This document shows positions 4,496-26,338 of a stretch of DNA of 26,338 nt, in pieces (position 1 is the stretch's first letter; each line of letters begins with the position of its first letter). Made by a program: the position numbers and the translations under genes. Source of the stretch: Planctomycetota bacterium (GTDB lineage Bacteria > Planctomycetota > UBA8108 > UBA1146); the NCBI GenBank assembly GCA_036338595.1, contig JAYZBV010000040.1, forward strand, positions 1 through 26,338. The letters are read 5' to 3'. The notes under the pieces were generated by a model. It saw only the letters and a list, made by a program, of their open reading frames with translations, ran no database searches and was not told where the DNA came from.

Positions 4496-4497
4496 GA

Positions 4498-5228: not shown

Positions 5229-5321
5229 GGAGTTAGTTCGTGGGCTTTCTTCATCGGGGGAGATTTTCGAGCGGCATCGATCTGGCTTCAGACCGATGCC
5301 GCTCGTCAAATTTTCAAGCCA

Positions 5322-8240: not shown

Positions 8241-8470
8241 TCAGTTACACCCCGGAAGTGACTGACAGTCGAGGAAGTCGAAGATCGGATCAGTTCCGCA
8301 GTCGGGGAAGGGATCTGGCGGTGGGGGAACACCCGGGCAGAAGAGTGCACACAACACATTCACCGCATCGGTGATGGTGATGGTCGGGTCGAAAGTGGTC
8401 ACCGCCGGCGAGATGGTGGCGTTGCCATCTGGGTCGACAACTTCACCGGGCAGGAACAGCTTGTGGGCGT
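8241..8470 (-). pseudogene. Remnant of an Ig-like + dockerin gene, internally deleted, with no signal peptide or proper start
   Basis: Manual translation of the minus frame ending in TGA at 8243-8241: AHKLFLPGEVVDPDGNATISPAVTTFDPTITITDAVNVLCALFCPGVPPPPDPFPDCGTDPIFDFLDCQSLPGCN*. The first part matches HKLFIPGDV..ISPNII of 4533..5228; the second part is the last dockerin helix plus the Cys/Pro tail. Confidence 0.75.
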
Positions 8471-8506
8471 TGGCTGGCTGCGGTTGGTAGTGGCAGCAGT
8501 GACGAG

Positions 8507-9070
8507 TCAGGGGCAGCCGAAGTATTCCCAGCAGTGGAAGTCATCGTCGGTGGGGTCGAAGCCGCAGTCGGGGTAGGGCGGGGCGATGACGGTGACGTCG
8601 CAGAAGATGAAGAGACACTGCAACAAGGAGATGGGGTCGGCGATGTTGGCGGCGCCATCGTCGTTGACGTCGACACTGTCGAGACAGGGAATCGCCATGT
8701 CGAGGAACAGGTGCCCGAGCATCAGGATCGGATCGGCGATGTCGTGCTGGCCATCGCCGTTGGCATCGCCGCGGGAGAAGTAGCCCGGTGTGGGCATGCC
8801 GTAGCAGTTTGAATCCTGCAGATCGATCAGCCCATCGCAGTCGTCGTCGATTCCGTTGTCGCAGATCTCGATGCAGTCGGGATCGCCGACACAATCGCTG
8901 TCGCAGCAATCGATGTTGCCATCGCCGTCGTCATCGATGCCGTTGGAACAGCTGTCGGGAATCGCCGCATCTTCCTGAGCCGGAAGCGGCAATCCGGAGC
9001 CGAGCCACAGCAGTAACAGCGCAGCGAGCGACGCCCTGCGGCACCAGGTCTGGCCAGGGCGATTTGCCAT
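8507..9070 (-). CDS. Small secreted protein with two acidic Cys-rich putative metal-binding repeats and a C-terminal dockerin
   Basis: Probable start is the ATG at 9070 (MANRPGQTWCRRASLAALLLLWLGSGLPLPA|Q); repeats CSNGIDDDGDGNIDCCDSDC and EICDNGIDDDCDGLIDLQDSNC resemble the MopE-related/EICDGxDNDCDG motif; dockerin FSRGDANGDG. Confidence 0.8.
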   Translation of the reverse strand: MANRPGQTWCRRASLAALLLLWLGSGLPLPAQEDAAIPDSCSNGIDDDGDGNIDCCDSDCVGDPDCIEICDNGIDDDCDGLIDLQDSNCYGMPTPGYFSRGDANGDGQHDIADPILMLGHLFLDMAIPCLDSVDVNDDGAANIADPISLLQCLFIFCDVTVIAPPYPDCGFDPTDDDFHCWEYFGCP

Positions 9071-9274
9071 CGAGGTGGTCTGTTTCGTTGAAGCGATGGT
9101 GGCATCCTTCGCTGATGGATCACGATGAGGATCCAATTGGAGATCAATATCCAGAGTCTACAGCCCACATATTGTATCTGCTCGGTTCTGGCGAACCATG
9201 CGGGAGTTAGCAGGTGCCATAGCCATACGGTATCATCGAGGTTCGACTCGTCGAAGAGTGATGGGAGCATCTCG

Positions 9275-10375
9275 ATGCTGCGAATCGGTTCCTGTGCCAG
9301 GTTTCTGCTGATGCTGGTACTCATCCTGCAAACCACCGAGATGTCTGCGCAGCAGACCAACGGAGATTTCCGCCGTGGCGATTGCCATGTCGATGGTCAT
9401 GTGGACCTGGCGGATGTCGTGCAGGTGATCGACTACCTGTTCGGTGGTGTGGCGCCGATCGATTGCGCCCTTGCCTGCGATGGCAACGATGACGACATCA
9501 TCGATGTGCAGGACATCATCACCATCACATCCTACGTGGTACTTGACGGGACCTTGCCACCGCCGGTCGGATCGTGTGCACAAGACCCGACGCCAGGAAC
9601 TCTCTTCTGTGATGTGCCGTGTGATCCTCCGGTGGTGCCACCGCTCTCTACAGAACACAGGTTCGAGATGCTGGTGGCCCCCCCGCTGCCACAATTTCTT
9701 GCACTGAGCATCGCTTCCACCAGCCCAGATCCGTTACACGCATTTTCCTTCGGAGTGTGCCACGACCCGAGCGAGGGGTCGGTGCAGCAGCTGGATCTGG
9801 GTGTCGACCTGCAATCGAACCCTCCCGATTTCATCGAGGTTGTCATCGAACCGGGAGGATGGACTGCGGCTGTGGTGATGAGTTTCCTCAACTCACAGCC
9901 CTTTCCAGCCGGTAGCGAGCAACGGGTCTTCGAGGCGCAGTACGAGATCGACCTCACTTCGCCAGTGGGCTTCACCGAGTTCTGTCCGTGTGAAACTATC
10001 GGAGATCCACCACTGGCGATTCGCATGGTCACGGAGGCTGGCGAGTCGATTTGGCCCGAGTTCGAATGCTTTTCGCTCGTGATCGTGGATCCGATCTTCT
10101 TCGTGCGTGGGGATTGCAACGGCGATGGAGGCATCAATGTCGCCGATGCGGTGTACCTGCTCGATTATCTCTTCATCGGGTCGGTCGTGCTTCCCTGTGA
10201 AGATGCCGGCGACATCGACGATGACGGCGCCCTCAACATCGCCGATCCCATCAACTTCCTCGCCTACCTCTTCTCCGGAGGGCCCCCGCCTGCACCACCC
10301 AACCCGGTCACCGGCTGTGGTGAAGATCTCGACGACAGCGATTCACTGCAGTGTGAGCAACTGAACTGCCCCTGA
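9275..10375 (+). CDS. Secreted dockerin-cohesin-dockerin protein (second adaptor/scaffoldin-like protein)
   Basis: Start moved to the ATG at 9275 (GGGAG at 9263-9267; MLRIGSCARFLLMLVLILQTTEMSA|Q); dockerins FRRGDCHVDG and FVRGDCNGDG flank a beta domain with AFSFGVCHDP, matching ISFGFCHDP in 3041..4174. Confidence 0.8.
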   Translation: MLRIGSCARFLLMLVLILQTTEMSAQQTNGDFRRGDCHVDGHVDLADVVQVIDYLFGGVAPIDCALACDGNDDDIIDVQDIITITSYVVLDGTLPPPVGSCAQDPTPGTLFCDVPCDPPVVPPLSTEHRFEMLVAPPLPQFLALSIASTSPDPLHAFSFGVCHDPSEGSVQQLDLGVDLQSNPPDFIEVVIEPGGWTAAVVMSFLNSQPFPAGSEQRVFEAQYEIDLTSPVGFTEFCPCETIGDPPLAIRMVTEAGESIWPEFECFSLVIVDPIFFVRGDCNGDGGINVADAVYLLDYLFIGSVVLPCEDAGDIDDDGALNIADPINFLAYLFSGGPPPAPPNPVTGCGEDLDDSDSLQCEQLNCP

Positions 10376-10434: not shown

Positions 10435-11949
10435 ATGGATCCTGTCGTGGCGATAGGGGGCAGAGTGCAGAGTGATCCACTGATCGATCAACTGCGAGCA
10501 GTCATTCCTGCTCGTCGCATCCTCACCGATGAAGATGAATGTCGGCTGTATGACAGTGATGGCCTGACTCTGCATCGTGGTGAGACTCCAGGTGTGCTGT
10601 TGCTGGAGAACGAAGTGGAGGTCGTCCACTCGGTTCGCGTACTGGCAGCTGCGGGTATCCCCTTCGTGGCGCGAGGTGCAGGAACGGGACTCAGCGGCGG
10701 TGCGGTTCCGATGGATGGTGCCTGGGTTCTCGATGTGCACCGGATGCGGCAGATCATCGAGGTCGATCCCTTGCAACGCAGTGCAGTGATCGAGCCGGGC
10801 GTGATCAATCTTGATCTGGATAAGGCCGCAGCGGCTCACGGACTGCGATTTGCTCCCGATCCATCGAGCCAGCGAGCCTGTACCGTCGGCGGAAACATCG
10901 CCGAGAACTCCGGCGGGCCGCACTGTTTTCTTCATGGCATGACGACACGGCACATCCTGTCCATCCGAACGTTGCTCACCGATGGCACGGTGGTCGATCT
11001 GGAACGAGATGGGGGAGGCATCGATTGGCGCGGCGCCTTCATCGGTTCCGAAGGCACCTTTGGTATCACTACCCGAGCCACGGTGAGGCTGGTACCGCGA
11101 CCTCCGAGCGTGCGAACTTTTCTGGTCTCCTACTCATCGCTGGAAGCATCGTGCGAGGCGGTCGCGACCATCATCGCCGCGGGCCTGAGGCCAGCTGCGC
11201 TGGAAATCCTGGACAGGTTGACCATCGGTGCTGTCGAGGCATCTGTGTTTCGTGCCGGATATCCAGAAGATGCGGAAGCGGTGCTACTCATCGAACTCGA
11301 GGGGCTCCCCGATGAGGTGGAGGAAGCAGCGGTTGCCGTGCGAGAGGCCGCTCACCTGGATGAGACCATCGGTTTCGAGGAAGCACTCGACGAGGAATCG
11401 AGGGAGCGATTGTGGCGCGGCAGAAAAGGTGCCTTCGGAGCGATGGGTCGGATCGCCAGTGATCTCTATGTTCTCGATGCGGTGGTTCCCAGAACCCGGA
11501 TGGCGCAGGCGATCAGTGCAATCCAGCAGATCGGACGCAAGCACAATGTGGTCCTGAGTAATGTCTTTCATGCCGGAGATGGAAACCTGCACCCGAACAT
11601 CTCCTTTGATTCCAACGATGCACAGCAACGGCAACAAGTGCTGGCGGCCGGCGATGAAATCCTGAAACTGTGCGTCTCTCTGGGAGGAACCCTGTCGGGA
11701 GAGCACGGCATCGGCATGGAGAAGCGAGATCACATGCCACTCATCTTCTCGCCAGAGCAACTGGAGACCCAGATGTTACTGAGAGAAGCGGTGGATCCGA
11801 CAGGGCTGGCGAATCCGGGCAAGATCCTGCCGACTGGACGCGGTTGTACCGAGGCTGGTTTTCGTGGTGCAGCCCACCTGGAAAGAACCGAGCAGATCTT
11901 GCGACCTGATGTCCCGCGACACGATGTCCCGCGGCCCGATGAAGAATAG
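10435..11949 (+). CDS. glcD: FAD-linked oxidase, glycolate oxidase subunit GlcD / D-2-hydroxyacid dehydrogenase family
   Basis: Motifs ARGAGTGLSGGA, APDPSSQRACTVGGNIAENSGG, GSEGTFG, FHAGDGNLHP, GEHGIG, NPGK; the start may be the GTG at 10465 after AGGGGG. Confidence 0.88.
   Translation: MDPVVAIGGRVQSDPLIDQLRAVIPARRILTDEDECRLYDSDGLTLHRGETPGVLLLENEVEVVHSVRVLAAAGIPFVARGAGTGLSGGAVPMDGAWVLDVHRMRQIIEVDPLQRSAVIEPGVINLDLDKAAAAHGLRFAPDPSSQRACTVGGNIAENSGGPHCFLHGMTTRHILSIRTLLTDGTVVDLERDGGGIDWRGAFIGSEGTFGITTRATVRLVPRPPSVRTFLVSYSSLEASCEAVATIIAAGLRPAALEILDRLTIGAVEASVFRAGYPEDAEAVLLIELEGLPDEVEEAAVAVREAAHLDETIGFEEALDEESRERLWRGRKGAFGAMGRIASDLYVLDAVVPRTRMAQAISAIQQIGRKHNVVLSNVFHAGDGNLHPNISFDSNDAQQRQQVLAAGDEILKLCVSLGGTLSGEHGIGMEKRDHMPLIFSPEQLETQMLLREAVDPTGLANPGKILPTGRGCTEAGFRGAAHLERTEQILRPDVPRHDVPRPDEE
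11901..11941 (+). repeat. 15-bp tandem repeat, about 2.7 copies, at the 3' end of glcD
   Basis: gcgacctgatgtccc / gcgacacgatgtccc / gcggcccgatg, encoding RPDVP-RHDVP-RPD. Confidence 0.75.
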
Positions 11950-11964
11950 AACAGTGATGAATAG

Positions 11965-11995
11965 AAAAGGGGTGCCTCCTGAAGGAGACACCCCT
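11965..11995 (-). terminator. Rho-independent terminator of 12033..14633, lying between convergent genes
   Basis: Minus strand AGGGGTGTCTCC-TTCA-GGAGGCACCCCT-TTT: 12-bp stem with one G-U pair, then a T run. Confidence 0.85.
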
Positions 11996-12032
11996 GACAA
12001 ACACCTCCGCGACGGGTCGTGGAGTCAATTCA

Positions 12033-14633
12033 CTAGCAAGATCCCGTGTACTCACAATCTGCGAGGGAATCAGTTGTTGGGTCTTCCCCACAACTGTCCG
12101 GGCCTGGCGCCGGTGGGGCATCACCACCCGAGAAGAGCGTGGCAAGGCCGAAGATGGCGTCAGCAATGTTGACACTACCATCGTCATTGGCATCGCAAGA
12201 ATCTTCACAGTCGCATGGATCACCAGCGGAGAACAGGGCGGCGAGCAAGAAGATGTAGTCTGCAATGTTGTGACCGCCATCTTGGTTGGTGTCGCCGCGC
12301 TTGAACTGCGGATTGCCGCTGGGAGCACCACCCAACACTCCGACATATCTGAGAGCCAGATCATTCTGGTCACCACCGAAGCCGCCGAACTCCCAGGATT
12401 GGCTGAGCACCAGTCCGCCAGAGTCAGTGTTGTAGAGGACGCCAGCGCCAACTCCGGCACCGAAGGACTGGCCATCCGGCTCCCAGACGAGAGCCGAGTT
12501 GGGGCCGAGAGCATCGAGTGTTCCGGGTGAAAGCTCATCGGTCCAGTCACTCGCAGTCGCCTGGTCCTGGTTGTAGGCGATGTCCTGGAGGTCACTGAGA
12601 TCGAGTCCAAAACCGCTGTCGAGGCCATCCATGATCAGGTAGGTGTCGCCACCGTCAACGACGCCATCGGCGATCCCGTCGATGGTGTTGAAGTCGGTCG
12701 CTGCATCGAAGCCCCAGATATCTCCACCTTCAACATAGATGTGCTTACCTGCGGATTGAGCGATCATGAGGGCAACACCGTCGGCGGCAGACAGAGCGCG
12801 GGCATTGGGGTAGGTACCACCCATGTACCAGATGCGCTCAAGTGTGTCATCGGTGAGACAGGCGAGATCTCCGGGTCCACCGGGAAGAATATCGACAACC
12901 AGGCCCAGAGATTCGAGGGCGGTTTGCAGAGCAGCTGCGCTGTCGATCCCCGAGGGAGTCTCTCCGATGATGATGATATCGGTGTATCCACCACCGCCTT
13001 GGACATTGACACTCACTTCAGTCACAACACTGGTGCCTTGAGTGGTGCAGTTACCTACGATCTCGTAGATGTGCGGTCCTGGAGGCGCAGCAACGTCGTT
13101 ATACGAGGTAGTGCCAAAGGGCAGCGCGCTGGCCAGTACCACTCCATCGCGAATGATATCGTAGGTACTGAAACCGGCAGGGTTCCAGCTCAGGGCGACA
13201 TCTCCAGTACCACAATCGACGACACCGATCACGCCTGTGAGACCAAAGTCGCACAACTCTTCAATGATCAGGTCACCGGTCAAGATTGCGCCTGCCTGCG
13301 GGTCATCCCAGGAACCACAGCGAACGATGTAGGTGGTTCCGGCTGTGCAGGAGAAGTTGAGGTCGGAACTGACTCCACAGGAGTCTCCGTTACATGTGAC
13401 ATCGATCTTGGTGCCACAAGCACCGCTGGACTCGTAAATGGCCAGATCGGTATCGATGGTGTTACAGGTGGAAACCCTCAGGAAGGAATTGGTGTTCGCC
13501 GTATAGGTGAACCACATGTCACTGTAGAAGCCTCCGAGGAAGGTACCCGCGCAATTGAGTCCGGCAACCGGATCAGGGCTATCAGTCATTAGCTCCAGAT
13601 TGAAAGCATTCGCGCCAGAGACTGCAGGGAATGCATCGCAGCACTCATCTCCTGCGATCGGCGGTGGGCAAGGCCCTCCGGTGCACGCAACGCTGCACAT
13701 GGCGGTCGTCGTGGAGCCGCCTCCGCAGTCACCGATGAGCTCGTAGACATTCAACCCCAGTGGAGCATTGAGATCGTCGTAGACGGTTGCATCACCCGGC
13801 AAGGTGTCGAGAACGACGCCATTACGCACTACCTGGATTCCATCAGCGTACCCACCAGGGACATTCAGGAAACTGGTCCAGTCCATCGTGACATCATTTG
13901 TGGTGCAGTCGATGTTGCAGTTGAAGGCATCAAATGGCAGACAGCCACAGGCACCCACACATGAGATCTGAACATCGTCGTAATAGAAGATACCGGGGTT
14001 GCCGGTGTTGTAGAGGTCGAGGCATTCCATCGCTTGCTGGCCACCAGCACCGTACCAGGTGCCATCGAGGACGATCTGGTTGCCGTTGAAAAAGGCCTGG
14101 TAAAGGTTGGCATCCAGATCTACATCGACGCGCACTTCGGTCCAGGCATCGTAGACGATGGGTGTGTCGGTGAATGTTCCACCGCCACCCGAGACATTGT
14201 CGCCACTGACGAGTCCTGTGCCGTCGGACATGTGAATCTGTCCAGACCAGTCGTAGCCTGATCCACTTCCATCGTATGTATTCATCAGGATGAAGTAGTA
14301 GTCACCCGCTTGCCCCGCAGGGATGTATACGTTGGATGTGAAAGAGAAAGCACCGCTGGTCAGTCCTCCGAAGAGGCGAACCACATCGTCATTGGGGGTC
14401 AACTCGATGCACCGATCTCCACCGGGTGTGGAGTTGTAGAGATCAACTACGTCGGAATCAACTCCGGGAGCGCCGTCCCATGTATCCCAGGAACCCTGTC
14501 CTGCGATGCCGGAACCCACGGCATAACTCTCGAAATCATCGAAGTCGAGCAACTGCGCGTGTAGCGCAGGAGTAAAAAAGAACGCCATACCCAGGCACAC
14601 TGCCGTGAGGGTTGGCAAGACACGAATCCTCAT
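12033..14633 (-). CDS. Large secreted multidomain protein: jelly-roll/ConA-like domain, FN3-like repeats, Cys-rich beta-sandwich, alpha/beta domain, C-terminal dockerin
   Basis: Start moved to the ATG at 14633 (AAAGGAG SD; MRIRVLPTLTAVCLGMAFFFTPALHA|Q); DDFESY..GQGSW..W and YYDDVQI bound the first domain; FN3-like MDW..VVRNG..YDD and LSW..IIRDG..YND; dockerin FKRGDTNQDG..DANDDGSVNIAD. Confidence 0.85.
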   Translation of the reverse strand: MRIRVLPTLTAVCLGMAFFFTPALHAQLLDFDDFESYAVGSGIAGQGSWDTWDGAPGVDSDVVDLYNSTPGGDRCIELTPNDDVVRLFGGLTSGAFSFTSNVYIPAGQAGDYYFILMNTYDGSGSGYDWSGQIHMSDGTGLVSGDNVSGGGGTFTDTPIVYDAWTEVRVDVDLDANLYQAFFNGNQIVLDGTWYGAGGQQAMECLDLYNTGNPGIFYYDDVQISCVGACGCLPFDAFNCNIDCTTNDVTMDWTSFLNVPGGYADGIQVVRNGVVLDTLPGDATVYDDLNAPLGLNVYELIGDCGGGSTTTAMCSVACTGGPCPPPIAGDECCDAFPAVSGANAFNLELMTDSPDPVAGLNCAGTFLGGFYSDMWFTYTANTNSFLRVSTCNTIDTDLAIYESSGACGTKIDVTCNGDSCGVSSDLNFSCTAGTTYIVRCGSWDDPQAGAILTGDLIIEELCDFGLTGVIGVVDCGTGDVALSWNPAGFSTYDIIRDGVVLASALPFGTTSYNDVAAPPGPHIYEIVGNCTTQGTSVVTEVSVNVQGGGGYTDIIIIGETPSGIDSAAALQTALESLGLVVDILPGGPGDLACLTDDTLERIWYMGGTYPNARALSAADGVALMIAQSAGKHIYVEGGDIWGFDAATDFNTIDGIADGVVDGGDTYLIMDGLDSGFGLDLSDLQDIAYNQDQATASDWTDELSPGTLDALGPNSALVWEPDGQSFGAGVGAGVLYNTDSGGLVLSQSWEFGGFGGDQNDLALRYVGVLGGAPSGNPQFKRGDTNQDGGHNIADYIFLLAALFSAGDPCDCEDSCDANDDGSVNIADAIFGLATLFSGGDAPPAPGPDSCGEDPTTDSLADCEYTGSC

Positions 14634-14880
14634 CGTTGTTCTCCTTTCCGGAGAGCTTTGGGGGAAGACCCCACCGGATGTCTGCATTTTGTCTCGCGAG
14701 CTGATCGCAACCTCAGGTACTCGGTCGCCCCGATCGAGGCGGATGCCCAGAGCGCCTGGTTGCATGAAAACCCAAATTTTCTTGTATCTCAGAACCCAAG
14801 CGTCGCAATGAGCAGCCGGTAATGGTGTTGATCAGAAACCAACGTAATTCCGGATTCTCGTCATACTTGACGCTGCCTCC

Positions 14881-14909
14881 ATCTTAGAGGGCAATAGCGG
14901 TGTCGACAA
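14881..14909 (-). promoter_or_regulatory. Sigma70-like promoter candidate for 12033..14633
   Basis: Minus strand TTGTCG-17 nt-TAAGAT, implying a leader of about 240 nt. Confidence 0.5.
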
Positions 14910-14924
14910 CTGCCTAGTGTCCCC

Positions 14925-16124
14925 ATGGAAAAGGCTCTTTCTCCGGGTTATTGGGCACTTATGACGGGATTCACAAAGAGTTGCTGCCCATATTTTGCCG
15001 ACCGCAGCGGTGGGGGTAGGCTCTGTGGTGAATTCAGCGACAGGGAATCGGGGGACAGCATCGAAGAAACAACACCTTCTCCCCCGCCGGACTCCCGTCG
15101 CGATGGGATCTGGGCACCCGGCAGCGGCAGTCGTGGATTGCTCCCAGCAGGGGTGCACTTCTCGACGCAGGTGGCGATTTCAGATCAGATCGAATCGCTG
15201 GAAGTCGCCGAGATGGTGGCCACCGTCGGAGCGGCAACTCCCGTGAGTGCGATTCGCGATGCTGCCGCCAGGCATGGACTCATCTCGAGTGGAGTGCTTC
15301 CCGATGAGACGGGAACCATCGGAGGTCTGTTTTCCGATCCCAGAGAAGGACCTGCGGATCCTGCCACCGGAAGATTTTGCGATCATGTCCTTGGCATCGA
15401 GGGTGTTCGAGGCGATGGATCGCCGATTTTGTCTGGCGGAACGGTCGTAAAAAATGTCACAGGCTACGATTTGATCAGACTGATGGGCGGGGCTCTGGGA
15501 GCACTGGGAGTGATCACCAGATTACACATCAGACTGGAAACAGCAGCGGCTTGCTGGAAGTCGCTTTCATTCGGGTTTCTGAATCGGCCGGAGGATTGGA
15601 GTGTTCTGGACCAACTTCGAAGGATGCCCTTCGAGCCGTACTTGATGTCGATCAAGCCTGCTCAGCAGCAGGTTCAACTGTTGCTATCTGGAACTCAAAG
15701 GGCAGTCGATGAGATGGCGTCATTCATCCGGGAAACCGTTGGAGATGTGGAAACAACGGAGTTCGATCGTGAACAGATGATCTCATTTCATCGAGAGCTA
15801 CGATCCAGGGAGGGAACGGCTCTCAGAATCAGGGTTGGATGGAAACACTGGTGCTCGATAGTTGCCCACGACGCTGGAACCTGGCGCGCCATCTGTCCTT
15901 CTGCGGGATACGGACTACTTGAACGGTGGCAACCAGGTTCCGACCTCGATTTCCTGGTCGAGAAAGTCGCATCCGTAGGTGGATCGGTGACTGCAGAAGA
16001 TGTCGAGGCCTGTGAGCGATCGGGTATCCCGCTGGTTCACCCCAGCGCCTCTGACACTCTGACCAGGAGCCTGAGGATGCTATGGGATGCCGACGGAAAA
16101 ATACCATGGCAGGGAGATCGGTGA
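14925..16124 (+). CDS. glcE: FAD-binding subunit, GlcE-like
   Basis: GTIGG, GGTVVKNVTGYDLIRLMGGALGALGVIT; stop overlaps the glcF start (GTGA at 16121-16124); the N-terminal start is uncertain (14925 or 14961). Confidence 0.78.
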   Translation: MEKALSPGYWALMTGFTKSCCPYFADRSGGGRLCGEFSDRESGDSIEETTPSPPPDSRRDGIWAPGSGSRGLLPAGVHFSTQVAISDQIESLEVAEMVATVGAATPVSAIRDAAARHGLISSGVLPDETGTIGGLFSDPREGPADPATGRFCDHVLGIEGVRGDGSPILSGGTVVKNVTGYDLIRLMGGALGALGVITRLHIRLETAAACWKSLSFGFLNRPEDWSVLDQLRRMPFEPYLMSIKPAQQQVQLLLSGTQRAVDEMASFIRETVGDVETTEFDREQMISFHRELRSREGTALRIRVGWKHWCSIVAHDAGTWRAICPSAGYGLLERWQPGSDLDFLVEKVASVGGSVTAEDVEACERSGIPLVHPSASDTLTRSLRMLWDADGKIPWQGDR

Positions 16125-17296
16125 ACAACATCGACGCTTCGACGATTCCGGCGCTGAAGGATTGTGTCCACTGTGGACTCTGTCTTCCGGAATGCCCGAC
16201 CTATTTCGCCAGCGGTAGAGAGGCTGAATCTCCCAGGGGCAGAATTGCTGCACTGCGCGCCGTGGTAGAGAGTCGATCCAGCATCAGCGATGCCATCCAT
16301 GATGGGATGGAAAGTTGTCTCGTATGCCGTGCATGCGAGAGCGCATGTCCTTCAGGCATTTCCATGGAACACTTGATGGCGCACTACCGTCACGAGAGTC
16401 GACCGCATCGTGGCGATCTTTCATCGGGAATCGAATCCTGGCTGTTGAAGAGAGTGATACCGCATCCCGGTCGCATCGGTGCACTGCTTGGTGGCTTGCG
16501 TTTGCTTGGACCCCTGTTGCGAGTCTTGCCGGCGACTCATGATCTACCGTCGGCGAGCCGATTGAGACCAGAGCCGGAGATCCCTCACCTGATCGAGGCG
16601 AAAGGGAGTGTTCGCGGAACGGTGTCCATCTTGCGTGGCTGTGTGGCGGACCGTCTCTTTCGCAGGGAGACGCATCTCTCTGCCCGATTGCTATCCGCGG
16701 CCGGGTGGAGGGTGGTGGTTCCCCCCGCTGGTTGCTGTGGTGCCCTTCACCATCATGCGGGCCTCGTTGAGGAAGCCAGGCAGCACTCGTCGCATCGCTG
16801 GAAAGATCTCCACGCACAGGGAATCGACCATGTTGTCGTGGATGGGGCAGGTTGCGGTGCCCATCTGTTATCAGAGGCACCCCCGGGCGCACCGCCCATC
16901 ATCGATACAGCCACCTTGCTGGCACAATCAGGGAACTTTGATATCAAGCAGAAGTTGACGGGACGATCGGTGTTATCGGTGCCGTGTCATCAAAAACACT
17001 CGGCACTTTCACTCGATGGTGGAACAGAGCTGCTCGATGCCTGCATCGAGGAACGGGTCGAACTCCCCGAGCCGGATCACTGCTGCGGGGCGGCTGGAAT
17101 GTACCTGCTTCGCCGAAGAAAAATGTCACGACTCATCGGCGACCAGGCCAGGAATCGCTTCGAGAGATCTGGAGCCGATACCATCATCAGCGGAAATCCT
17201 GGATGTCTGTTGAGATGGGAGGGGCTGCTCGGGCCAAAAAACGCCATCCACCCGGTTCGCCTTCTGGCCCATGCGTGCCATCTGGAGCCGCTTTAG
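16121..17296 (+). CDS. glcF: Fe-S subunit, GlcF-like (two [4Fe-4S] motifs plus two CCG domains)
   Basis: CVHCGLCLPECP, ESPRGRI, CLVCRACESACP, GCCGALHHHAG, HCCGAAG, GNPGC; GTG start at 16121 with AGGGAG SD, coupled to the glcE stop. Confidence 0.88.
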   Translation: MNNIDASTIPALKDCVHCGLCLPECPTYFASGREAESPRGRIAALRAVVESRSSISDAIHDGMESCLVCRACESACPSGISMEHLMAHYRHESRPHRGDLSSGIESWLLKRVIPHPGRIGALLGGLRLLGPLLRVLPATHDLPSASRLRPEPEIPHLIEAKGSVRGTVSILRGCVADRLFRRETHLSARLLSAAGWRVVVPPAGCCGALHHHAGLVEEARQHSSHRWKDLHAQGIDHVVVDGAGCGAHLLSEAPPGAPPIIDTATLLAQSGNFDIKQKLTGRSVLSVPCHQKHSALSLDGGTELLDACIEERVELPEPDHCCGAAGMYLLRRRKMSRLIGDQARNRFERSGADTIISGNPGCLLRWEGLLGPKNAIHPVRLLAHACHLEPL

Positions 17297-17434: not shown

Positions 17435-20400
17435 ATGTCGATGTTCACCCGACTTGCTGCTGTCATTTTCACCTTCATGCTCTTCTACATCTCGATGTTG
17501 CTCTTTCAAGAGACGCTTCCGCTTCCGGAAGAACTTTCACTCCTATCCGCAGACTTTTTCTCCCTGATGGCACGATTCGTGGGGGCCTGCCTCGTGGCGA
17601 CCGTTGGCCTTGGAATCCTGATGGAAGTGGGTGTCATCCCGGACTGGGGGAATCTGCGGCAGCGAACGGGTGGAGGAGCCACACTGCCAGGGGATATGGC
17701 TGAAGGTCATGGAGAAGATGAGCATTCGGGTCACGGTGGAGATCCTGGAGAGATGATGGTGCTTCACGGGGTTGCTGTTCCGAAGGAAGTGCTGGATCAG
17801 TTACAGGATGAGGAAATGTCCGACGAGACCCTGATCTCCATCGCCAACAACTTTGATGATTATGAACCGTCGGTGAGCGCTTTGATCATCCTGAGTGATC
17901 GACAACGCGGTTCTGCGGAACTCGATGGTCTAGTGATCACGCAGAATACGCCTCCGGCATGGGATCGGCTGGCAGCGAGAGCCCTGATGAGGCGAGATCC
18001 TCGGTTCACCCTCAGTGAGTGCCTGATCAAGTTTCCATGGTCAACCGATGAGGAGATGCAGAAGGTCATCTCGGAACATCTTGAGATCGTGGTTCATCGG
18101 AGCACCCCCGATGAGGATGCTGATCGAGTTGCTCAATGGATCAGTACGTGGCAGGGCCAGGTCGAACCGGGTCTCGACCTGATGCGCCGTTTCCTGCACG
18201 AAGAGTTCATGGAGATTCTCAGCGAAAAACTGAAAGCAAAAAAAAGTGCATTGACGATCGACTCTGTGGCCAGTCTCTGGAGCGAAGAAGAGATCGAAAG
18301 AAACAAGCAGGAGTGTGTCGAACTTCCTGGAGCAGAGAAGTATCGGACCAGCATCCTGAAGCGACTCGAAACCGCTGAGCCGCGATCGATGTTGCTTGTC
18401 GGTGCCAGTGGTGTTGGAAAAGAAACGCTGATCCGCATGGTGCTGTCGGATCTTGCAGCTGACGGCTGGTCGATCGTGGAAGCATCCGCACAGGATCTGG
18501 TAGCCGGAATGATGTATATCGGCCAGATGGAGGAGCGCTGGAAAGAACTGGTAGGGCAGCTTTCTGCTCCACGAACAGTTCTCTTCATCCCCGATTTCAG
18601 CGAGATGGAATCTGCCGGTCGTCACATGAACAATCCGGTCAGCCTGCTCGACAGGATGATCATAGAAATTCGCCGAAACAGATTGGTAACCGTCGGGCTG
18701 GTCGACGGTTCAGATGTCGAGTCGTTATTGCGGAAAAACCGCTCGATAAGAAAGGTCTTCGATCTGGTCGAGGTGGAGTCGCCCGGTGAGGACGCCACTG
18801 TGGCGGGGCTTCAACTGTGGTTGCAACATGAATCGATCATCAAGGAGTCCGCTGAGCCGATCTCCATCACAGAGGAAGTTCTCAGGAAAATCGTCACGCT
18901 GTCGCAACAGTATCTGACGGCTCAGGATGCCTTCGGATCTTCCTTTGATCTGCTCAAATCGATCCTTGATCGGAAGCGCCAGGCCGGTGAGAGCGAAATC
19001 ACCTATCAGGATGCAGTATTCGCAATCACCGAGCGTTCAGGGATGCCGCGCGTGATCGTCGACGATGAAGAGTCCCTGGATCCGCAAGAAGTGCAGAGAT
19101 TTTTCGGTAAGCGAATCATCGGTCAAGAAGAGGCGATCCAGTGCATGGCTGATCGAATCACACTGATGAAGGCGGGCCTTACCGATGCGGGTAGGCCGCT
19201 TGGCGTCTTCTTCTTCGCAGGTCCGACGGGAACCGGAAAAACAGAAAGCGCCAAGGTACTCGCCGAATATTTGTTTGGCTCGAAGGAGCGACTCGAACGC
19301 CTCGACATGAGCGAGTTGCAGACGGCTTCGGACCTGGGACGTCTGGTTGGATTTCCGGATGGCGGATCGGGCGCATCCCACCGGAGTCTACTCGATGCGA
19401 TCCGACGCCAACCGTTCTGCGTTGTTTTGCTCGACGAGTTCGAGAAGGCGCATCCCAATGTGTGGGACATGTTCTTGCAGGCGTTCGACGATGCTCGGAT
19501 GACTGACACGCGCGGCCAGACCGTGAACCTTCGCCATGTAGTATTCATCCTGACGAGCAATGTTGGTGCGCGAGAAGCTGCACAGGGGGCATTTGGATTC
19601 AATCCAGAGTCAGGCAAAGAAAATATCTACGAAAGAGCTCTCCGTGAGACCTTCAGACCGGAGTTCCTCAATCGAATAGATCAGGTCGTGACATTCCGCC
19701 CCTTCTCAAGAACCGAGCAGAGAGCGCTGCTCGAGATGGAACTCAAGCGGGTCCTTTCTCGAAGAGGCCTGAAGGACCGACCATGGGCCGTGGAATGGGA
19801 AGAGTCTGCCATCGATTTTCTGTTGTCTCATGGCCTGACTTCGCAACTGGGTGCACGGCCACTGCGGCGAGCGGTAGAGAAATTCGCACTGACTCCGATC
19901 GCACAGGAGATGCTCATTCACGACATTCCGAAAGGAGATCAGTTCCTGTTCGTTCGTAGCGATGGGAAGAAGATCGAGGTCGATTTCGTGGATCCTGACG
20001 CGGCGACACAGGAGGCTGAGGAAGCTGAACTACCACCGGTCGAGATCTCAGGTGCGGATCTTCGCAGCGGATCGGAAGCGGTGGCGAGAGTTGCGCTGAG
20101 AGGTTCAGGCAGGCTCGAAGAAGTGATGATACTCGCTGACAGAGTTGAGGTACTCGAGGTCAGAATTGACTCGGAAGAATGGGACGAAGCAAGAAATGGA
20201 GACATGGAACAGATGACCGAGGCTGGTTTCTGGGATTCTCAGGATCGGCTTCCTGTGCTGGCATCGGCGGAACTGCGTGACAGGATCGAATCGGGAACAC
20301 GGACTGCCAGGTCGCTCCTTGATCGACTCGGAGGCGATGCGGAAAATTCTCGTGATCGTTATCCATCCGAGGTCATCCGCCGCCTCGCCATGCAGATTCA

Positions 20401-20965
20401 CTTGCTCGAAAATGCTCTTCAGGTTCTCGATGAGAAATTGCCTCAGGATGCCTTCATCCGGATCACTCCAGTGAAACGAGACAAGGAATCCACAGAAGAT
20501 GGTGCACAGTGGGCCAAGCAGGTGACGGAGATGGTCACGACATGGGCTACCAAGCGAAACATGAACCTCCAGGAGTGTGAGAATTCAAACGGGGTCCATC
20601 AGCCTGAAGGGGCCTGGGTAGCAGCCGTGAACGGATTTGCCGCCTATTCCTTGCTCGAACCACTCGCAGGTATCCACGAACTGGAGCGCCCCGAGGCGAG
20701 TCGCAATGACCGTCGCCTTCATGTCCGAATCGAAGTCGTTCCCAGACCCCTCGGAATCGCACCCAGTGGCGATGCCGGACTCGCGACTCAAGCGAGAGAA
20801 GTATTGACTGCTGGTTCCAGCATCGATGAGGTAGTGCGCAGGTATCGGGTTGGAGATAATCCGAAGCTGGTCGATCTTCGCCAGGGATGGCGTTGTGCTT
20901 CACCCGGTGATGCTCTGGCTGGAGACTTCGATCTGGTTGGAAGTTTGGCTGCCTTGACCCGGTGA
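17435..20965 (+). CDS. ClpA/ClpB-like tandem AAA+ ATPase with two N-terminal TM segments and a C-terminal release-factor (RF2/PCRF)-like domain lacking GGQ
   Basis: D1 Walker A GASGVGKE and LVAGMMYIGQMEER; D2 IIGQEEA, GPTGTGKTE, RLDMSE, VVLLDEFEKAHP, ILTSN, FRPEFLNRID, GARPLRR; C-terminus QMTEAGFWD..WAKQVTEMVTTWA..GFAAYSLLEPLAGIHELER..VVRRY..DLRQG..LAGDFD. Confidence 0.85.
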   Translation: MSMFTRLAAVIFTFMLFYISMLLFQETLPLPEELSLLSADFFSLMARFVGACLVATVGLGILMEVGVIPDWGNLRQRTGGGATLPGDMAEGHGEDEHSGHGGDPGEMMVLHGVAVPKEVLDQLQDEEMSDETLISIANNFDDYEPSVSALIILSDRQRGSAELDGLVITQNTPPAWDRLAARALMRRDPRFTLSECLIKFPWSTDEEMQKVISEHLEIVVHRSTPDEDADRVAQWISTWQGQVEPGLDLMRRFLHEEFMEILSEKLKAKKSALTIDSVASLWSEEEIERNKQECVELPGAEKYRTSILKRLETAEPRSMLLVGASGVGKETLIRMVLSDLAADGWSIVEASAQDLVAGMMYIGQMEERWKELVGQLSAPRTVLFIPDFSEMESAGRHMNNPVSLLDRMIIEIRRNRLVTVGLVDGSDVESLLRKNRSIRKVFDLVEVESPGEDATVAGLQLWLQHESIIKESAEPISITEEVLRKIVTLSQQYLTAQDAFGSSFDLLKSILDRKRQAGESEITYQDAVFAITERSGMPRVIVDDEESLDPQEVQRFFGKRIIGQEEAIQCMADRITLMKAGLTDAGRPLGVFFFAGPTGTGKTESAKVLAEYLFGSKERLERLDMSELQTASDLGRLVGFPDGGSGASHRSLLDAIRRQPFCVVLLDEFEKAHPNVWDMFLQAFDDARMTDTRGQTVNLRHVVFILTSNVGAREAAQGAFGFNPESGKENIYERALRETFRPEFLNRIDQVVTFRPFSRTEQRALLEMELKRVLSRRGLKDRPWAVEWEESAIDFLLSHGLTSQLGARPLRRAVEKFALTPIAQEMLIHDIPKGDQFLFVRSDGKKIEVDFVDPDAATQEAEEAELPPVEISGADLRSGSEAVARVALRGSGRLEEVMILADRVEVLEVRIDSEEWDEARNGDMEQMTEAGFWDSQDRLPVLASAELRDRIESGTRTARSLLDRLGGDAENSRDRYPSEVIRRLAMQIHLLENALQVLDEKLPQDAFIRITPVKRDKESTEDGAQWAKQVTEMVTTWATKRNMNLQECENSNGVHQPEGAWVAAVNGFAAYSLLEPLAGIHELERPEASRNDRRLHVRIEVVPRPLGIAPSGDAGLATQAREVLTAGSSIDEVVRRYRVGDNPKLVDLRQGWRCASPGDALAGDFDLVGSLAALTR

Positions 20966-20989: not shown

Positions 20990-22306
20990 CTAGCGATTCG
21001 GACGCTGACCGATCGGTTTATTCTTGGCAGGTTGCGGGGTAAGAATTCCGGTGACTGAGTTTTCTGATCCCAGGTATTTTTCTCTCAGCTGTTTCAACTG
21101 TGCATCGGAATGACGCCCAAAATTATTCCTGAGTTCATCTTCGTTCATGTTGAAGACACGCCTGAGCATCAGAGAAACTGCTGCCGGATGGGGGTCGCGC
21201 ATCGATGTTGCCTCGTGTACTCGATAGGCACCGAGTAGAATTCCGATACCACTTTTAGCCTGCACTAACTGCTCTCCGGAGACGGGCGTTTCGAGAGCAT
21301 AAGCAAACGCACCATCCATCTGATGCAGTGCTCGGGTTGTGCGTTGCTCAAGAGGTGCTGTACTGGCAGCTACTGGCTGCTTCAGGATGACCACCTCTGG
21401 ATCGAGGATCGGATCCCAGTAACAACTGCCCCCCTCCACTTCCAGGACTCGATTTGCCCGCGGAATGAAGAGACCCAGAGCCAGCGCATCGATCGATCCT
21501 GGCGCGGGAACACGCCACCCACGAGCAACCATCCCGGTATCCGGAATCGAGGAGGCTGCCGCTTTGATTTCTCCTGGATCTGGAACTGCCCTCGGAGGAG
21601 CGTCCAGTGCTCGACCGGGAGAGAGGGTTGCGAAGGTCTGCTCGATCAGTGTGATCACAGGAGCAGGATCGAAGGGTCCTGCGATGACAATCCGCACGGT
21701 TCCAGGGTGATAGGTCCGGGCAAGAAATTTGCCTACATCGTGACCCTGGATGAGATCGAAATCAGCAGCTCCACGAGGTCCGGCGGCGAGCGGATCGAGC
21801 CGATCGAGAATCAAGTTGGTGAGACGTTGCGAATCGTTTGAATGTAATCGGGATAACTGCTCAACGATTCTTTCTCGGCTCATCTGAAGATGTTTTTCAT
21901 CCACATCTCGATCACCGAAAATAAGGGCCATCGCTTCGAGACTATCGATCAACCGAGAGGGGTGTATTTTTTCGGTGATCCAGGTGTGTTTGCTTCCCGC
22001 TCTGATCTCCCGCCTGACTCCGTTTGCAGATTCTCCACTGCTGGCTAACCATTGTGCAGACAAATGGGTTCGTCCCGCGAGACTGGCGCGATCGTGGTGG
22101 GCGCCCACATTCCATGTCGTGACGATGGTGACTTCCTGCATCGAGGGAGCGATCAGAGATGGTATCGGAAGGACGGCCACCTCGAGGCCGTTATCGAGCG
22201 TGTACCAGACCTGCCGAAGGGTTTCCTTCGGTGGCGTCTGAGATGCCTGTTCGCCATCCGCTGACAACATGAACGGCAGTAGCCAGGCGAGGAGGATGGT
22301 TGTCAT
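20990..22306 (-). CDS. Secreted M16 (insulinase)-family peptidase-like protein, probably catalytically inactive
   Basis: YTLDNGLEVAV, WNVGAHHD, FLARTYHPGTVRIVIAGPFDP, GWRVP; the HxxEH site reads GRTHLSAQW; probable start MTTILLAWLLP at 22306. Confidence 0.7.
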   Translation of the reverse strand: MTTILLAWLLPFMLSADGEQASQTPPKETLRQVWYTLDNGLEVAVLPIPSLIAPSMQEVTIVTTWNVGAHHDRASLAGRTHLSAQWLASSGESANGVRREIRAGSKHTWITEKIHPSRLIDSLEAMALIFGDRDVDEKHLQMSRERIVEQLSRLHSNDSQRLTNLILDRLDPLAAGPRGAADFDLIQGHDVGKFLARTYHPGTVRIVIAGPFDPAPVITLIEQTFATLSPGRALDAPPRAVPDPGEIKAAASSIPDTGMVARGWRVPAPGSIDALALGLFIPRANRVLEVEGGSCYWDPILDPEVVILKQPVAASTAPLEQRTTRALHQMDGAFAYALETPVSGEQLVQAKSGIGILLGAYRVHEATSMRDPHPAAVSLMLRRVFNMNEDELRNNFGRHSDAQLKQLREKYLGSENSVTGILTPQPAKNKPIGQRPNR

Positions 22307-22378
22307 GCAGAAGGTCCCTTCGGATGGACATCTGACGGAACAGACGCTCACAGATCAACCGTTTGCTGCCCACTTCAT

Positions 22379-23638: not shown

Positions 23639-23810
23639 CTGGGCTCCCCTTTCCATCGGTTGAAGTGCGGAGAGTGGGACTACCGCAACGGGAATGTCAG
23701 CGCCAGTTCCCGGGATCGGCGACCGACCCCCTTCGGTCGCCTCGTTGACTCCCTCTCTCCTCTCGTTGACGATCATATCCGTGGCCCATCGGCCGCCGGG
23801 AGGAGTGAAG

Positions 23811-26338
23811 TTGTCTTCGAGAAAGCCCAATTACCTGCTGATGACGATGGTGCTGTTGTTCTCTGGCACCGGCCTGGTTCGTTCCCAGGATGAAGGACGC
23901 GAACAGGCGATTCGTGCTGTCAGAGACGGCGCGTGCTTGCAATGCCATGAGGCCGAGGGGGAATGGTCCAGCTGGTTACGGTCGGTTCCGCCTCCGCTCC
24001 TCGATGGGGCCGGATTGCGACTTCGTCCCGACTGGCTGATCGACTGGATCTCTGATCCTGTGACGGATGAGCCGGGCACCCGTATGCCGCATGCTCTGGC
24101 CGCGGTACCCGAGGATCAGCGCCGCGAAGTGGCGACCGACATCACGCATTTCCTCATCGCGCGAGATCGCGGACCCGGTGACTGGAGCCCGGTGCAGTTC
24201 AACGGTGCCGATGTGGATCTGGGTAAACGGTTTTTTGACACCATCGGATGTGCCGCCTGTCACGACGGGCCTGCGCTGTCGGCACGGATGGCGCGGAGAA
24301 CGACCAAGACCGCTCTTACCGGGGAATTGCAGCAATCTCATGCCATCCATCGTTCCGGGAGAATGCCGCAGATCAACATGGAGCCGAGCGAGGCTGCTGC
24401 CATCGCCACGTACCTGATTCGCGATCAGGCCACCGATGCCAACGGCGATCCCTTCATCGATGTGATTCCTGGTCTGAGATACGAGGCCTATCTGGGTCGA
24501 TTCGAGAATTGCGAAAAGATCGTCGATGGAGAGCTGGTGGCGAGCGGATACGCCGAAAAGATCTCGGTCGACCCGAAGCCGAGACAGGACAACTTCGGTA
24601 TCCGCTATTTCGGCGAGTTTCTGGTGTCTCAAGCGGGCCAGTATCAGTTCTCGTTACGAAGTGATGACGGTTCAAAGCTGTGGATCGACGGTGTTCTGGT
24701 TGTCGACAACGATGGTGTCCATGGACCCACGACCAGGACCGGAAGCATGACACTGACCAGCGGCTGGCACGGTTTAGATGCGAGGGTTTTTGAGCACGGT
24801 GGTGGAGAAACGATTCTCGTCCAGTGGTCGGGTCCAGGTATCGAGAAAGAGCGCGAGTTCAGGCCTGCGGAATTACGAACCCGATCCAGTGTTGCCTTGC
24901 CGGTGGAGCCCCCCTTTCGACTGGAACCGGGGCGTATCATCCGAGGTGGTCAGGCATATTCCACATACGGCTGCAATGCTTGCCATGAGCCGAAGGCAGC
25001 CCCGAACCAGAAGAACTGGAATCAACTCCGAGCAGAGCCTGTCGGGTGTCTATCGACCGATCCTCCGGTGGGAAGTCCTGCATACAATTTCGATGATGAG
25101 ATGATCAAGAGTTTGCTCGCCTTGATCGATTCCGTCGAGTTCGAGATCGCACTCGAACCGGGTGCTCATGCCGAGTTACTCATCGACGACGCGGGTTGTA
25201 CCAGCTGTCACCAACGAAATGGCCGAGGTGGACCCGACGCCGAGAAGAACAAGACTTTTCTCGGCACCGCAGAACTGGGTGACGAAGGACGTCTGCCGCC
25301 ACTGTTGACCGGGGTGGGCACGAAGCTGAATTACGATGTTCTGCACAAGACCATCGCCGAGGGTCTGAAGGTGCGGCCCTACGTGGTCAGCCGTATGCCC
25401 TCCTACCCTGCAGCACTTGCAGAGGAAGTGACTCGCGCCATCTTCGCTGGCGACAACGAGCCGCCATCCGAACCGTTGGTTCCCGCATTCAGCATCGAGT
25501 CGCGCAAGGTAGGGCATCAACTCACCGGCACTGACGGGTTCCGATGCATCGATTGCCACAAGTTTGCAGGACACGATTCCCTCGGCGAACCCGCCTATGA
25601 TCTGGCCGTGATGGCGGCGAGGTTGCAACCGCGCTGGTTCCACGAGTACATGATCGATCCGCAATCGAAGCGCCCCGATACGCGAATGCCGACCTTCTGG
25701 TTCGATGATGTGAGTCTGTTTCCTGATCTTCTGGGGGGGGATACCGATGCCCAGGTCGAGGCTCTCTGGACCTACCTGTCCGGAGGAGCGGCTTCGCCTT
25801 TCCCCAAGGGCTTGATCATCAATCGCAGTGATTTCGATCTGTTGCCCACTGCCGAGGAACCGACGATGGTCGGTGTCTTCATGCGTGGACTCAGTGGCAG
25901 GGTCGTTGCGGTGGGTTATCCCGATCGAGTCAGCGTCGCCTACGACATGGAAAATGTCCGACTGGGTAAGGCGTGGCGAGGAGACTTCATCAACGTCAAG
26001 GGCACCTGGGTGGGGCGTGCAGGATCGCTGGAATCTCCTGCGGGGACCGATGTCATCGACTTTGCGCCCGGGCTGCCGGTCGCCATCATCGAGCAGAGAG
26101 ATTCGAAGTGGCCCGATGATCCGGTTCGCGATCAGGGCTGGCGATATCGTGGCCATCGAAGAGATGCCGAGCGCAAACCGATCTTCCGCATCTCCGGCCC
26201 CGGCGGGGTCGAGATGACCGAGTTGGTGGTGCCGCTGGTGGCTGCGGATGGAATTCATCTGCGGAGAATTTTCCGCTTCGAGGGGGATTCGTTGCCACGC
26301 AACCTGGCGATGCGGTTTGCCCGATCGAAACAGATCTC
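23811..26338 (+). CDS. Multiheme c-type cytochrome (at least 5 CxxCH) with an internal PA14 domain; truncated by the window edge and absent from the ORF track
   Basis: Manual translation from the TTG at 23811 (GGAGGA SD at 23799-23804) stays open for 842 codons; signal peptide ending VRS|Q; CLQCH 23934, CAACH 24249, CNACH 24972, CTSCH 25197, CIDCH 25545; PA14 signature DNFGIRYFG..YQFSLRSDDGSKLWIDG..DNDGVH..FEHGGG. Confidence 0.9.
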   Translation, partial: MSSRKPNYLLMTMVLLFSGTGLVRSQDEGREQAIRAVRDGACLQCHEAEGEWSSWLRSVPPPLLDGAGLRLRPDWLIDWISDPVTDEPGTRMPHALAAVPEDQRREVATDITHFLIARDRGPGDWSPVQFNGADVDLGKRFFDTIGCAACHDGPALSARMARRTTKTALTGELQQSHAIHRSGRMPQINMEPSEAAAIATYLIRDQATDANGDPFIDVIPGLRYEAYLGRFENCEKIVDGELVASGYAEKISVDPKPRQDNFGIRYFGEFLVSQAGQYQFSLRSDDGSKLWIDGVLVVDNDGVHGPTTRTGSMTLTSGWHGLDARVFEHGGGETILVQWSGPGIEKEREFRPAELRTRSSVALPVEPPFRLEPGRIIRGGQAYSTYGCNACHEPKAAPNQKNWNQLRAEPVGCLSTDPPVGSPAYNFDDEMIKSLLALIDSVEFEIALEPGAHAELLIDDAGCTSCHQRNGRGGPDAEKNKTFLGTAELGDEGRLPPLLTGVGTKLNYDVLHKTIAEGLKVRPYVVSRMPSYPAALAEEVTRAIFAGDNEPPSEPLVPAFSIESRKVGHQLTGTDGFRCIDCHKFAGHDSLGEPAYDLAVMAARLQPRWFHEYMIDPQSKRPDTRMPTFWFDDVSLFPDLLGGDTDAQVEALWTYLSGGAASPFPKGLIINRSDFDLLPTAEEPTMVGVFMRGLSGRVVAVGYPDRVSVAYDMENVRLGKAWRGDFINVKGTWVGRAGSLESPAGTDVIDFAPGLPVAIIEQRDSKWPDDPVRDQGWRYRGHRRDAERKPIFRISGPGGVEMTELVVPLVAADGIHLRRIFRFEGDSLPRNLAMRFARSKQI

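Follow-up and report, generated by a model that had tools for sequence, protein, structure and literature searches.

Background

Stalled translation in bacteria is resolved by several routes (tmRNA, ArfA/ArfB/BrfA, PrfH and RqcH), and in these the nascent chain is released or tagged first and is then degraded by separate proteases. In ClpA, ClpB and ClpC, the pore loop of the second AAA+ module (D2) is the main motor. In release factors (RFs), whose domains are numbered 1 to 4, the SPF loop and the tip of helix 5 are the stop-codon-reading elements, and domain 4 of RF2 faces ribosomal RNA (rRNA). Here we describe a gene in which elements of both protein classes are encoded as one polypeptide. 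It is located in a stretch of 26,338 nucleotides (the window) from a Planctomycetota bacterium (GenBank assembly GCA_036338595.1, contig JAYZBV010000040.1), and its product consists of a predicted membrane anchor, a HEAT-like domain, two AAA+ modules (D1 and D2) and an RF2-like module without GGQ. The family of this protein, here called Clp-RF, falls into two clades, and the protein from the window (the query) belongs to clade I.

The AAA+ part is most readily compared with ClpC and ClpA. The tandem D1-D2 modules are common to both, the top structural matches were ClpC in ClpCP complexes (E 5.7e-35), a GF loop is found at the same place, the ATPase motifs of D2 are intact and, as in ClpA, there is no M-domain. 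Unlike ClpC and ClpA, the Clp-RF family has a transmembrane anchor (in clade I) and a HEAT-like domain with no Clp_N, and carries an RF module at the C-terminus. The query scored about 281 bits against the NCBIfam models for ClpA and ClpB, for which the cut-offs are 993 and 1232, and it differs from ClpB in that the model contains no long M-domain and a GF loop is present. Domains 1, 2 and 4 of RF2 (PrfB) were recognized by profile and by fold. Unlike in RF2, domain 3 is deleted (clade I) or without GGQ (clade II), the helix-5 tip motif is missing along with SPF, the module is fused behind an ATPase, and domain 4 is basic. The family therefore belongs neither with RF2, for lack of GGQ and SPF, nor with ClpA/ClpC, for lack of Clp_N, the D1 Walker B motif and the D2 GYVG loop, nor with ClpB.

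Other relatives and analogs of RFs share single aspects of this design. PrfH and ArfB are bacterial RF paralogs for rescue, and PrfH aligned with domains 2 and 4 of the module at Z 9.7, but both have kept the GGQ domain, and ArfB corresponds in essence to the part that the Clp-RF family has discarded. Plant PrfB3, as described in the available text of PMC5897788, is an RF2 homolog without SPF and GGQ that has turned into an RNA binder, but it is a stand-alone chloroplast protein with neither ATPase nor anchor. In ribosome rescue, Dom34/Pelota is a catalytically dead RF paralog and Vms1/ANKZF1 an RF homolog that interacts with the AAA+ ATPase Cdc48 (main text of the release-factor survey PMC6514570); their aeRF1 fold is unrelated and the ATPase is a separate protein, making the analogy functional only. 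No description of a Clp-RF2 fusion was found in the literature listings searched; the word 'Clp' does not occur in the main text of that survey, nor 'release factor' in the main text of PMC7159879, and the supplement of either may list such architectures.

Results and Discussion

An RF2-like module without its catalytic domain

The original prediction for this gene, made from the letters alone, placed an RF2-like domain of about 270 residues, with SPF absent and domain 3 replaced by a linker of about 28 residues, behind two AAA+ modules and a membrane anchor. This anatomical description is correct. The open reading frame (ORF) has the predicted position, the four RF2-like blocks that had been quoted are all present in it, and the RF2 likeness of the C-terminus is borne out by a family profile, by a fold search with an AlphaFold2 (AF2) model and by the Pfam family PCRF. 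What changed was the extent of the RF-like part, which comprises RF2 domains 1, 2 and 4 and starts near residue 893, giving about 284 residues. The ClpP-docking-type loop, the HEAT-like N-domain and a sister clade without transmembrane helices, all described below, are additions to that prediction.

Pfam matches in the whole protein were AAA (residues 319-411), AAA_2 (587-750), ClpB_D2-small (761-836) and PCRF (981-1096), and the same scan gave no match to RF-1 (PF00472). Taken alone, the last 302 residues scored 26.4 bits against PCRF (cut-off 24), and their top match in the PDB was RF2 (E 1.8e-4). A profile of 64 family C-termini matched Bacillus subtilis RF2 at E 8.8e-17 over stretches 4-214 and 294-352, with domain 3 skipped. 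The AF2 model of the module had a predicted local distance difference test score (pLDDT) of 94.3 and a predicted TM-score (pTM) of 0.91. RF1 and RF2 led the Foldseek matches of this model, and they were the top four rows when it was compared with 48,161 chains by VIA-align, in which domains 2 and 4 reached Z 16.9 with a root-mean-square deviation (rmsd) of 3.2 Å over 148 residues and the first unrelated chain was at Z 10.6. The fold thus superposes on RF1 and RF2, and homologs keep the RF-like domain. Alignment with the factors of the host genome gave 265 aligned columns for RF2 and 90 for RF1, and by this measure the module is nearer to RF2 than to RF1. Chance resemblance to RF2 was ruled out by profile, fold and conservation in the family.

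The functional elements of RF2 that could be traced by motif were missing. The 97-residue domain 3 of the RF2 from the same genome is replaced by a linker measured at 29 residues in the query. SPF was found within the last 330 residues of 0 of 164 family members, versus 28 of 29 RF2s, and GGQ occurred in the C-termini of only two of the 164, both times away from the domain-3 position. The GGT loop at the helix-5 tip was also gone, and the tip loop was not conserved in the family. Because both codon-reading elements have been lost, codon-specific decoding of the stop-codon kind is unlikely. The distance from GxH to the RxY of domain 4 was 127 residues in RF2, where 26 of 29 sequences could be measured, 110 in clade II (all 15) and 57 at the median in clade I (131 of 164 rows). 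The other 33 clade I rows had no match to the pattern, among them the query, for which a separate measurement gave 56. Conservation was highest in domain 4, in clade I and in clade II alike. The net charge of a 31-residue block within it was +3.6 in clade I, +3.7 in clade II and -1.2 in an RF2 set that was not GC-matched, and such a basic domain 4 would suit RNA binding.

AAA+ modules with complementary motif losses

Two AAA+ modules had been predicted and two were found (Pfam AAA, AAA_2 and ClpB_D2-small), neither of them canonical. Motif counts refer to the 87 full-length members of clade I. The Walker A lysine of D1 was kept in 83 of these, but the position of the Walker B aspartate was a proline in 74, and the arginine-finger region was poorly conserved. 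The D1 pore position was aromatic or histidine in 82 proteins (55 tyrosine, 21 phenylalanine, 2 tryptophan and 4 histidine). In D2, GYVG was found in 0 of the 87 proteins, and neither GYVG nor GYIG was found in 49 further proteins; the two ClpC-like proteins that this genome also encodes both have GYVG. The clade II modules showed the same motif pattern as those of clade I. No coiled-coil insert (M-domain) was seen between D1 and D2 in the full-length model. Judged by these motifs, D1 and D2 have lost complementary elements. In ClpX, the aromatic residues of pore loop 1 grip the substrate (available text of PMC9035409). With GYVG missing from D2 and Walker B degenerate in D1, strong processive unfolding is doubtful for the Clp-RF protein. 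The predicted Clp anatomy was confirmed, while the role of a canonical unfoldase or extractase that had been attached to it was weakened.

The second feature of D2 is a loop with the GF signature after sensor 1, which was kept in 27 of 32 clade II proteins as well as in clade I (Table 1). Loops of the LGF type dock on ClpP and set ClpC and other ClpP partners apart from ClpB (available text of PMC10149685). A complex of D2 with three copies of the ClpP that is linked to clpX in this genome was predicted with a score of 0.38, versus 0.00 for the best control; because ClpCP and ClpAP have already been solved, this may be memory. Of 157 solved pairs, 116 attained the mark for such complexes, as did 2 of 215 mismatched pairs; at scores of 0.60 or below these were only 18 solved pairs and both mismatched ones. 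Contact agreement between runs was at least 56%, and the partner had a pLDDT of at least 68. The modeled complex hints weakly at docking of D2 on ClpP. The protein probably acts in the manner of a ClpP partner.

The N-terminus and the complete gene

The predicted membrane anchor was found as two hydrophobic segments in the query. By hydropathy, a transmembrane helix was present in the first 150 residues of 69 of the 87 full-length clade I members, and a control window gave 0 of 87. Most clade I members have a single predicted helix of the reverse signal anchor type. Lysine and arginine flanking this helix averaged 2.9 after it and 0.3 before it, which fits a reverse signal anchor with the rest of the protein in the cytoplasm. 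The domain that follows was recognized by a profile of 35 sequences, for which the PDB match was alphaRep4 (E 7.8e-10). Single sequences matched HEAT_2 in 2 of 35 clade I members and in 4 of 8 clade II proteins; the N-domain of the query had no Pfam match, and Clp_N was not matched by the N-domain of the query or of the family. In the ESM Atlas, three clusters were matched at 0.97, all named AAA/Clp by automatic annotation, and the N-domain had no usable match.

The AF2 model of the complete protein had a pLDDT of 88 and a pTM of 0.76. A promoter and terminator scan detected no promoter-like site upstream of the gene, and Rfam gave no match between positions 16000 and 23000. Three RNA runs contained only short pieces of low identity and gave no evidence on expression either way.

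Table 1. Coordinates of the Clp-RF gene and of its parts in the window
Feature	Positions	Strand	Basis
Whole gene, 1176 aa: transmembrane anchor, HEAT-like domain, degenerate D1, D2, GGQ-less RF2 module	17435..20965	+	ORF, Pfam, full-length AF2 model
Two predicted transmembrane helices (aa 7-25, 50-68)	17453..17638	+	hydropathy
Disordered acidic tether (aa 69-104)	17639..17746	+	pLDDT <50 in model
Helical N-domain, HEAT/alphaRep-like, in the place of Clp_N (aa ~106-280)	17750..18274	+	35-sequence profile against PDB
AAA+ D1, degenerate: Walker A GASGVGKE, Walker B LFIPDF (PD instead of DE), pore-loop Tyr361 kept, no M-domain	18275..19042	+	87-protein alignment, model
AAA+ D2 and small domain: Walker A/B, sensor 1, Arg finger, sensor 2 intact	19067..20002	+	key residues in 85-87 of 87
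Site of pore loop 1 in D2: no GYVG, loop variable in length and sequence	19340..19390	+	GYV in 0 of 87 rows (one row all gaps here)
ClpP-docking-type loop, FGF (aa 720-722)	19592..19600	+	G in 85 of 87, F in 86 of 87, L/I/F/V before it in 77 of 87; flexible in model
RF2 domain 1 helical bundle, FWD motif (aa ~893-1002)	20111..20440	+	family profile, structure comparison (6szs: Z 16.2, 251 aligned, rmsd 9.3), alignment to RF2 of the genome
RF domain 2 (aa ~1003-1103), variable sequence in place of helix-5 tip loop and SPF loop	20441..20743	+	structure comparison, family alignment
29-aa linker with one helix in the place of GGQ domain 3	20744..20830	+	AF2 model, comparison with RF2 of the genome
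RF domain 4 (aa 1133-1176), Arg-enriched across the family	20831..20962	+	charge of 31-aa block

Distribution and evolution of the family

A search with the RF-like piece found 492 representatives at 50% identity (E up to 0.001), 150 of which were listed; 163 proteins were compared, and the 87 that had at least 1000 residues are the full-length set used above. With a strict peptide pattern, 159 stretches were confirmed in GTDB genomes and 80 loci were kept. The family loci are labeled from about a dozen phyla, and three cultured species are among them; loci of cultured carriers are L081 (Pseudoxanthomonas helianthi), L077 (Rudaea sp.) and L082 (Solirubrobacter taibaiensis). The titles name Eisenbacteria, Acidobacteriota, Actinomycetota, Pseudomonadota, Gemmatimonadota, Bacteroidota, Planctomycetota, Thermodesulfobacteriota/Deltaproteobacteria, Latescibacterota, Methylomirabilota, Verrucomicrobiia and one Heliomicrobium; a relative that is 67% identical to the query over the RF region is labeled Planctomycetota. 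Of 301 genomes of the host phylum, nine matched with E < 1e-100 and another 21 with E between 1e-25 and 1e-38, so the distribution is patchy.

The fusion itself was consistently kept. Sixty-eight of the 80 loci were single-frame fusions, six were flagged as multi-frame (five apparently frameshifted and one with a stray extra match), five were cut by the end of a contig, and one was a partial D2 with an RF module in a single frame. No free-standing RF module was found among the 80 loci where upstream sequence exists. All 55 of the long matches to the RF-module profile carry AAA_2 and ClpB_D2-small, and many of these were named ClpC by their sources. An assembly chimera or fusion artifact was ruled out, given the single-frame fusions and given relatives of similar length at 53-93% identity over the RF region.

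Clade II, which was first characterized from eight readable sequences among ten taken from the 21 weaker matches (the out-of-frame alignment row of L099 was ignored), is a sister form that has kept a shortened domain 3 without GGQ. Its members are L098-L100, L102-L104, L106, L107 and P0166-P0211. In a tree of D2, clade I was well supported (98/97) and contained the subfamily of the query on a long branch, while support for clade II was weak (82/51); with two ClpC outgroups, the origin of the family is beyond the reach of this tree. Its groupings mix phyla. The two clades suggest that RF domain 3 was lost stepwise. The simplest order would be a single fusion of RF2 and Clp, followed by loss of GGQ and then, in clade I, by deletion of domain 3 and gain of the anchor, an order that two ClpC outgroups cannot prove.

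Genomic context

The host genome encodes its own RF1 and RF2, an ArfB-like protein, two ClpC-like ATPases, ClpX and two ClpP proteins. The Clp-RF protein is therefore an addition to these systems, not a replacement, and a role as stand-in for a missing RF2 was ruled out. The two ClpC-like proteins, both with GF loops, were the only other double-ring Clp ATPases found in this genome, which is 88% complete, and prfC (RF3) had no match above the cut-off in it.

A survey of homolog neighborhoods, which had been proposed as a check, gave no support for a ribosome or RNA role. Neighbors were clustered from 3175 ORFs at the 80 loci and the window, and Pfam was scanned with 103 flanking ORFs from 46 of the 80 loci (selected from about 149 candidates by dropping fragments and near-duplicates, each cut to 450 residues). 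Most of the 103 were metabolic or transport genes without a common theme. PrfH adjoins rtcB, while the RtcB family was not among these 103 neighbors of the Clp-RF family. Local synteny was kept within the host family.

In one of the 46 loci sampled, from Eisenbacteria, ffh (SRP54) is directly upstream on the same strand (L023:2703-4031). In the window, a gene with a weak Peptidase_M16_C match (20990-22351, minus strand) ends 24 bp from the stop codon of the Clp-RF gene; a gene of this type also adjoins in three relatives, convergent in L108 and downstream and co-oriented in L109 and L110. An open frame with cytochrome c and PA14 matches runs to the window edge (23694-26336, plus strand), and its counterpart adjoins the Clp-RF gene in three relatives. 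Further away, seven ORFs (56-10375 and 12033-14765) have an RGDxNxDG calcium-binding-like domain, presumably of the dockerin type, at or near the C-terminus, and most have signal-peptide-like starts; the ORFs at 56-2677 and 5322-7997 are apparent paralogs. Positions 10435-17296 encode FAD oxidase, FAD-binding and CCG/4Fe-4S proteins, a set that we take to be glcD/glcE/glcF-like and that is interrupted by a 910-residue ORF on the opposite strand.

Possible function

The explanation that we favor, tentatively and with a little less than even confidence, is that the Clp-RF protein is a membrane-tethered ClpP partner in which a dead RF2 mimic finds stalled or vacant ribosomes, so that their nascent chains are cleared. 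It is part of this best explanation that the RF2 body, as its lost motifs indicate, would be incapable of peptidyl-tRNA hydrolysis or stop-codon reading. The protein would form a ring and dock on ClpP. On a stalled or vacant ribosome, RF domains 2 and 4 would bind rRNA in or close to the A site, whatever the codon, in a manner comparable to Dom34/Pelota. ATP turnover in D2 would power docking and release instead of forceful threading, and the D1 pore aromatic may hold a nascent chain that is already unfolded and hand it over to the opened ClpP. In clade I the anchor would direct this action to membrane-bound ribosomes. Nascent chains on ribosomes are attacked by ClpP that has been opened with no ATPase involved (available text of PMC8182300), and weak threading or a missing D2 loop would therefore be no bar to such a role. 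The explanation is favored because the RF fold and the fusion are kept across the family, because conservation is highest in domain 4, which has also become more positively charged, and because the GF loop, the type that separates ClpP partners from ClpB, is kept in both clades. Recognition of ribosomes or RNA by the RF module, which had also been proposed originally, is something we infer; the basic domain 4 would help it, and the neighborhoods do not.

Several observations weigh against this explanation. A ring of about 0.8 MDa would need to reach the A site. The SPF loop and the helix-5 tip, both of which contact the codon, have been lost, and the arginine enrichment of domain 4 may partly stem from GC-rich hosts, given the RF2 set used for comparison. 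Domain 1 is posed unlike that of ribosome-bound RFs: the rmsd of the whole module was mostly 8-16 Å (9.3 Å over 251 residues for 6szs), and the best TM-score was 0.54, to the free RF2 1gqe. The top covarying pairs (191 sequences, about 150 effective) suggest tight packing of domain 1 against domain 2, and domain 1 has near-invariant residues that are peculiar to the family and absent from RF2 (E946, D949, R950 and R964). Domain 4 and Walker A of the query diverge more than the family consensus. No neighbor recurred across lineages in the clustering, only within related lineages, and ClpP, release-factor, ribosomal-protein and RtcB families were absent from the 103 flanking ORFs. None of 29 full-length clade II members has an N-terminal transmembrane helix, which indicates that the Clp-RF design is independent of the membrane anchor.

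The near-invariant residues of domain 1 also fit another explanation, in which the RF module has been repurposed as a protein-interaction or regulatory domain on the ATPase ring, where it takes the place of the missing M-domain or of an adaptor and chooses or gates ClpP substrates with no ribosome role. The loss of all decoding and catalytic motifs and the neighborhoods without a link to translation agree with this, as do conserved patches on D2-small (R776-R777, W784-A785, Q836-L838 and F851-D855), tentative couplings between D2-small and the RF module at ranks 20-28 (H829-N1042, K816-I911 and H829-T955), and the full-length pTM of 0.76, which suggests fixed domain packing. However, the strongest conservation and the gain of charge are in domain 4, the couplings derive from few effective sequences, with probable noise among them, and packing on the ring would be compatible with RNA binding as well. 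We regard this explanation as doubtful, though it deserves serious attention.

Binding of a non-ribosomal RNA (an mRNA end, tRNA or non-coding RNA) by the RF module, with the ATPase remodeling a ribonucleoprotein or having ClpP degrade its proteins at the membrane, would also make use of a basic domain 4, and has a precedent in PrfB3, which binds the petB 3' untranslated region without SPF and GGQ (available text of PMC5897788). This seems unlikely, as no conserved neighbor or RNA presents itself as the target, with no Rfam match around the gene, and one specific target is hard to reconcile with a spread over many phyla. That spread is patchy within the host phylum, with 9 strong and 21 weaker matches in 301 genomes, and mixes phyla in the D2 tree, which together with HEAT repeats that could act as a sensor would fit an effector of conflict or stress which, once infection or damage occurs, would block ribosomes, split them or unleash ClpP. 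But the local gene order is shared within the host family, and metabolism and transport account for most of the flanking genes; of the 103, a PIN gene and a DUF4062 gene were the only conflict-like ones in Pfam, with no defense-library search made, and this last explanation appears very improbable.

In a broader form, which we hold with less confidence than the membrane-tethered ClpP partner alone, the family may be a one-polypeptide bacterial machine for ribosome quality control: a dead RF2 mimic would dock independently of the codon, a Clp ring with a gripping D1 and a hydrolyzing D2 would bring ClpP or split the ribosome, and clades I and II would be its membrane and soluble branches.

Conclusions

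The Clp-RF family is a conserved variant among Clp ATPases. As had been anticipated, its architecture is already in the databases, where it is found under automatic names. If the favored explanation is true, an RF body and a ClpP-docking ATPase in one protein would link proteolysis directly to the recognition of ribosomes, and in clade I this link would lie at the membrane, where the clearance of stalled secretory chains is poorly understood. The broader machine would parallel, in bacteria, the pairing of Dom34/Pelota with an ATPase and, if docking on ribosomes is real, would be a new kind of bacterial translation quality control. Even if the link to the ribosome fails, the family is an undescribed class of Clp proteins that is automatically named ClpC in databases, and its complementary motif losses in D1 and D2 put the accepted threading model to the test. 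The cultured carriers make the Clp-RF family testable.

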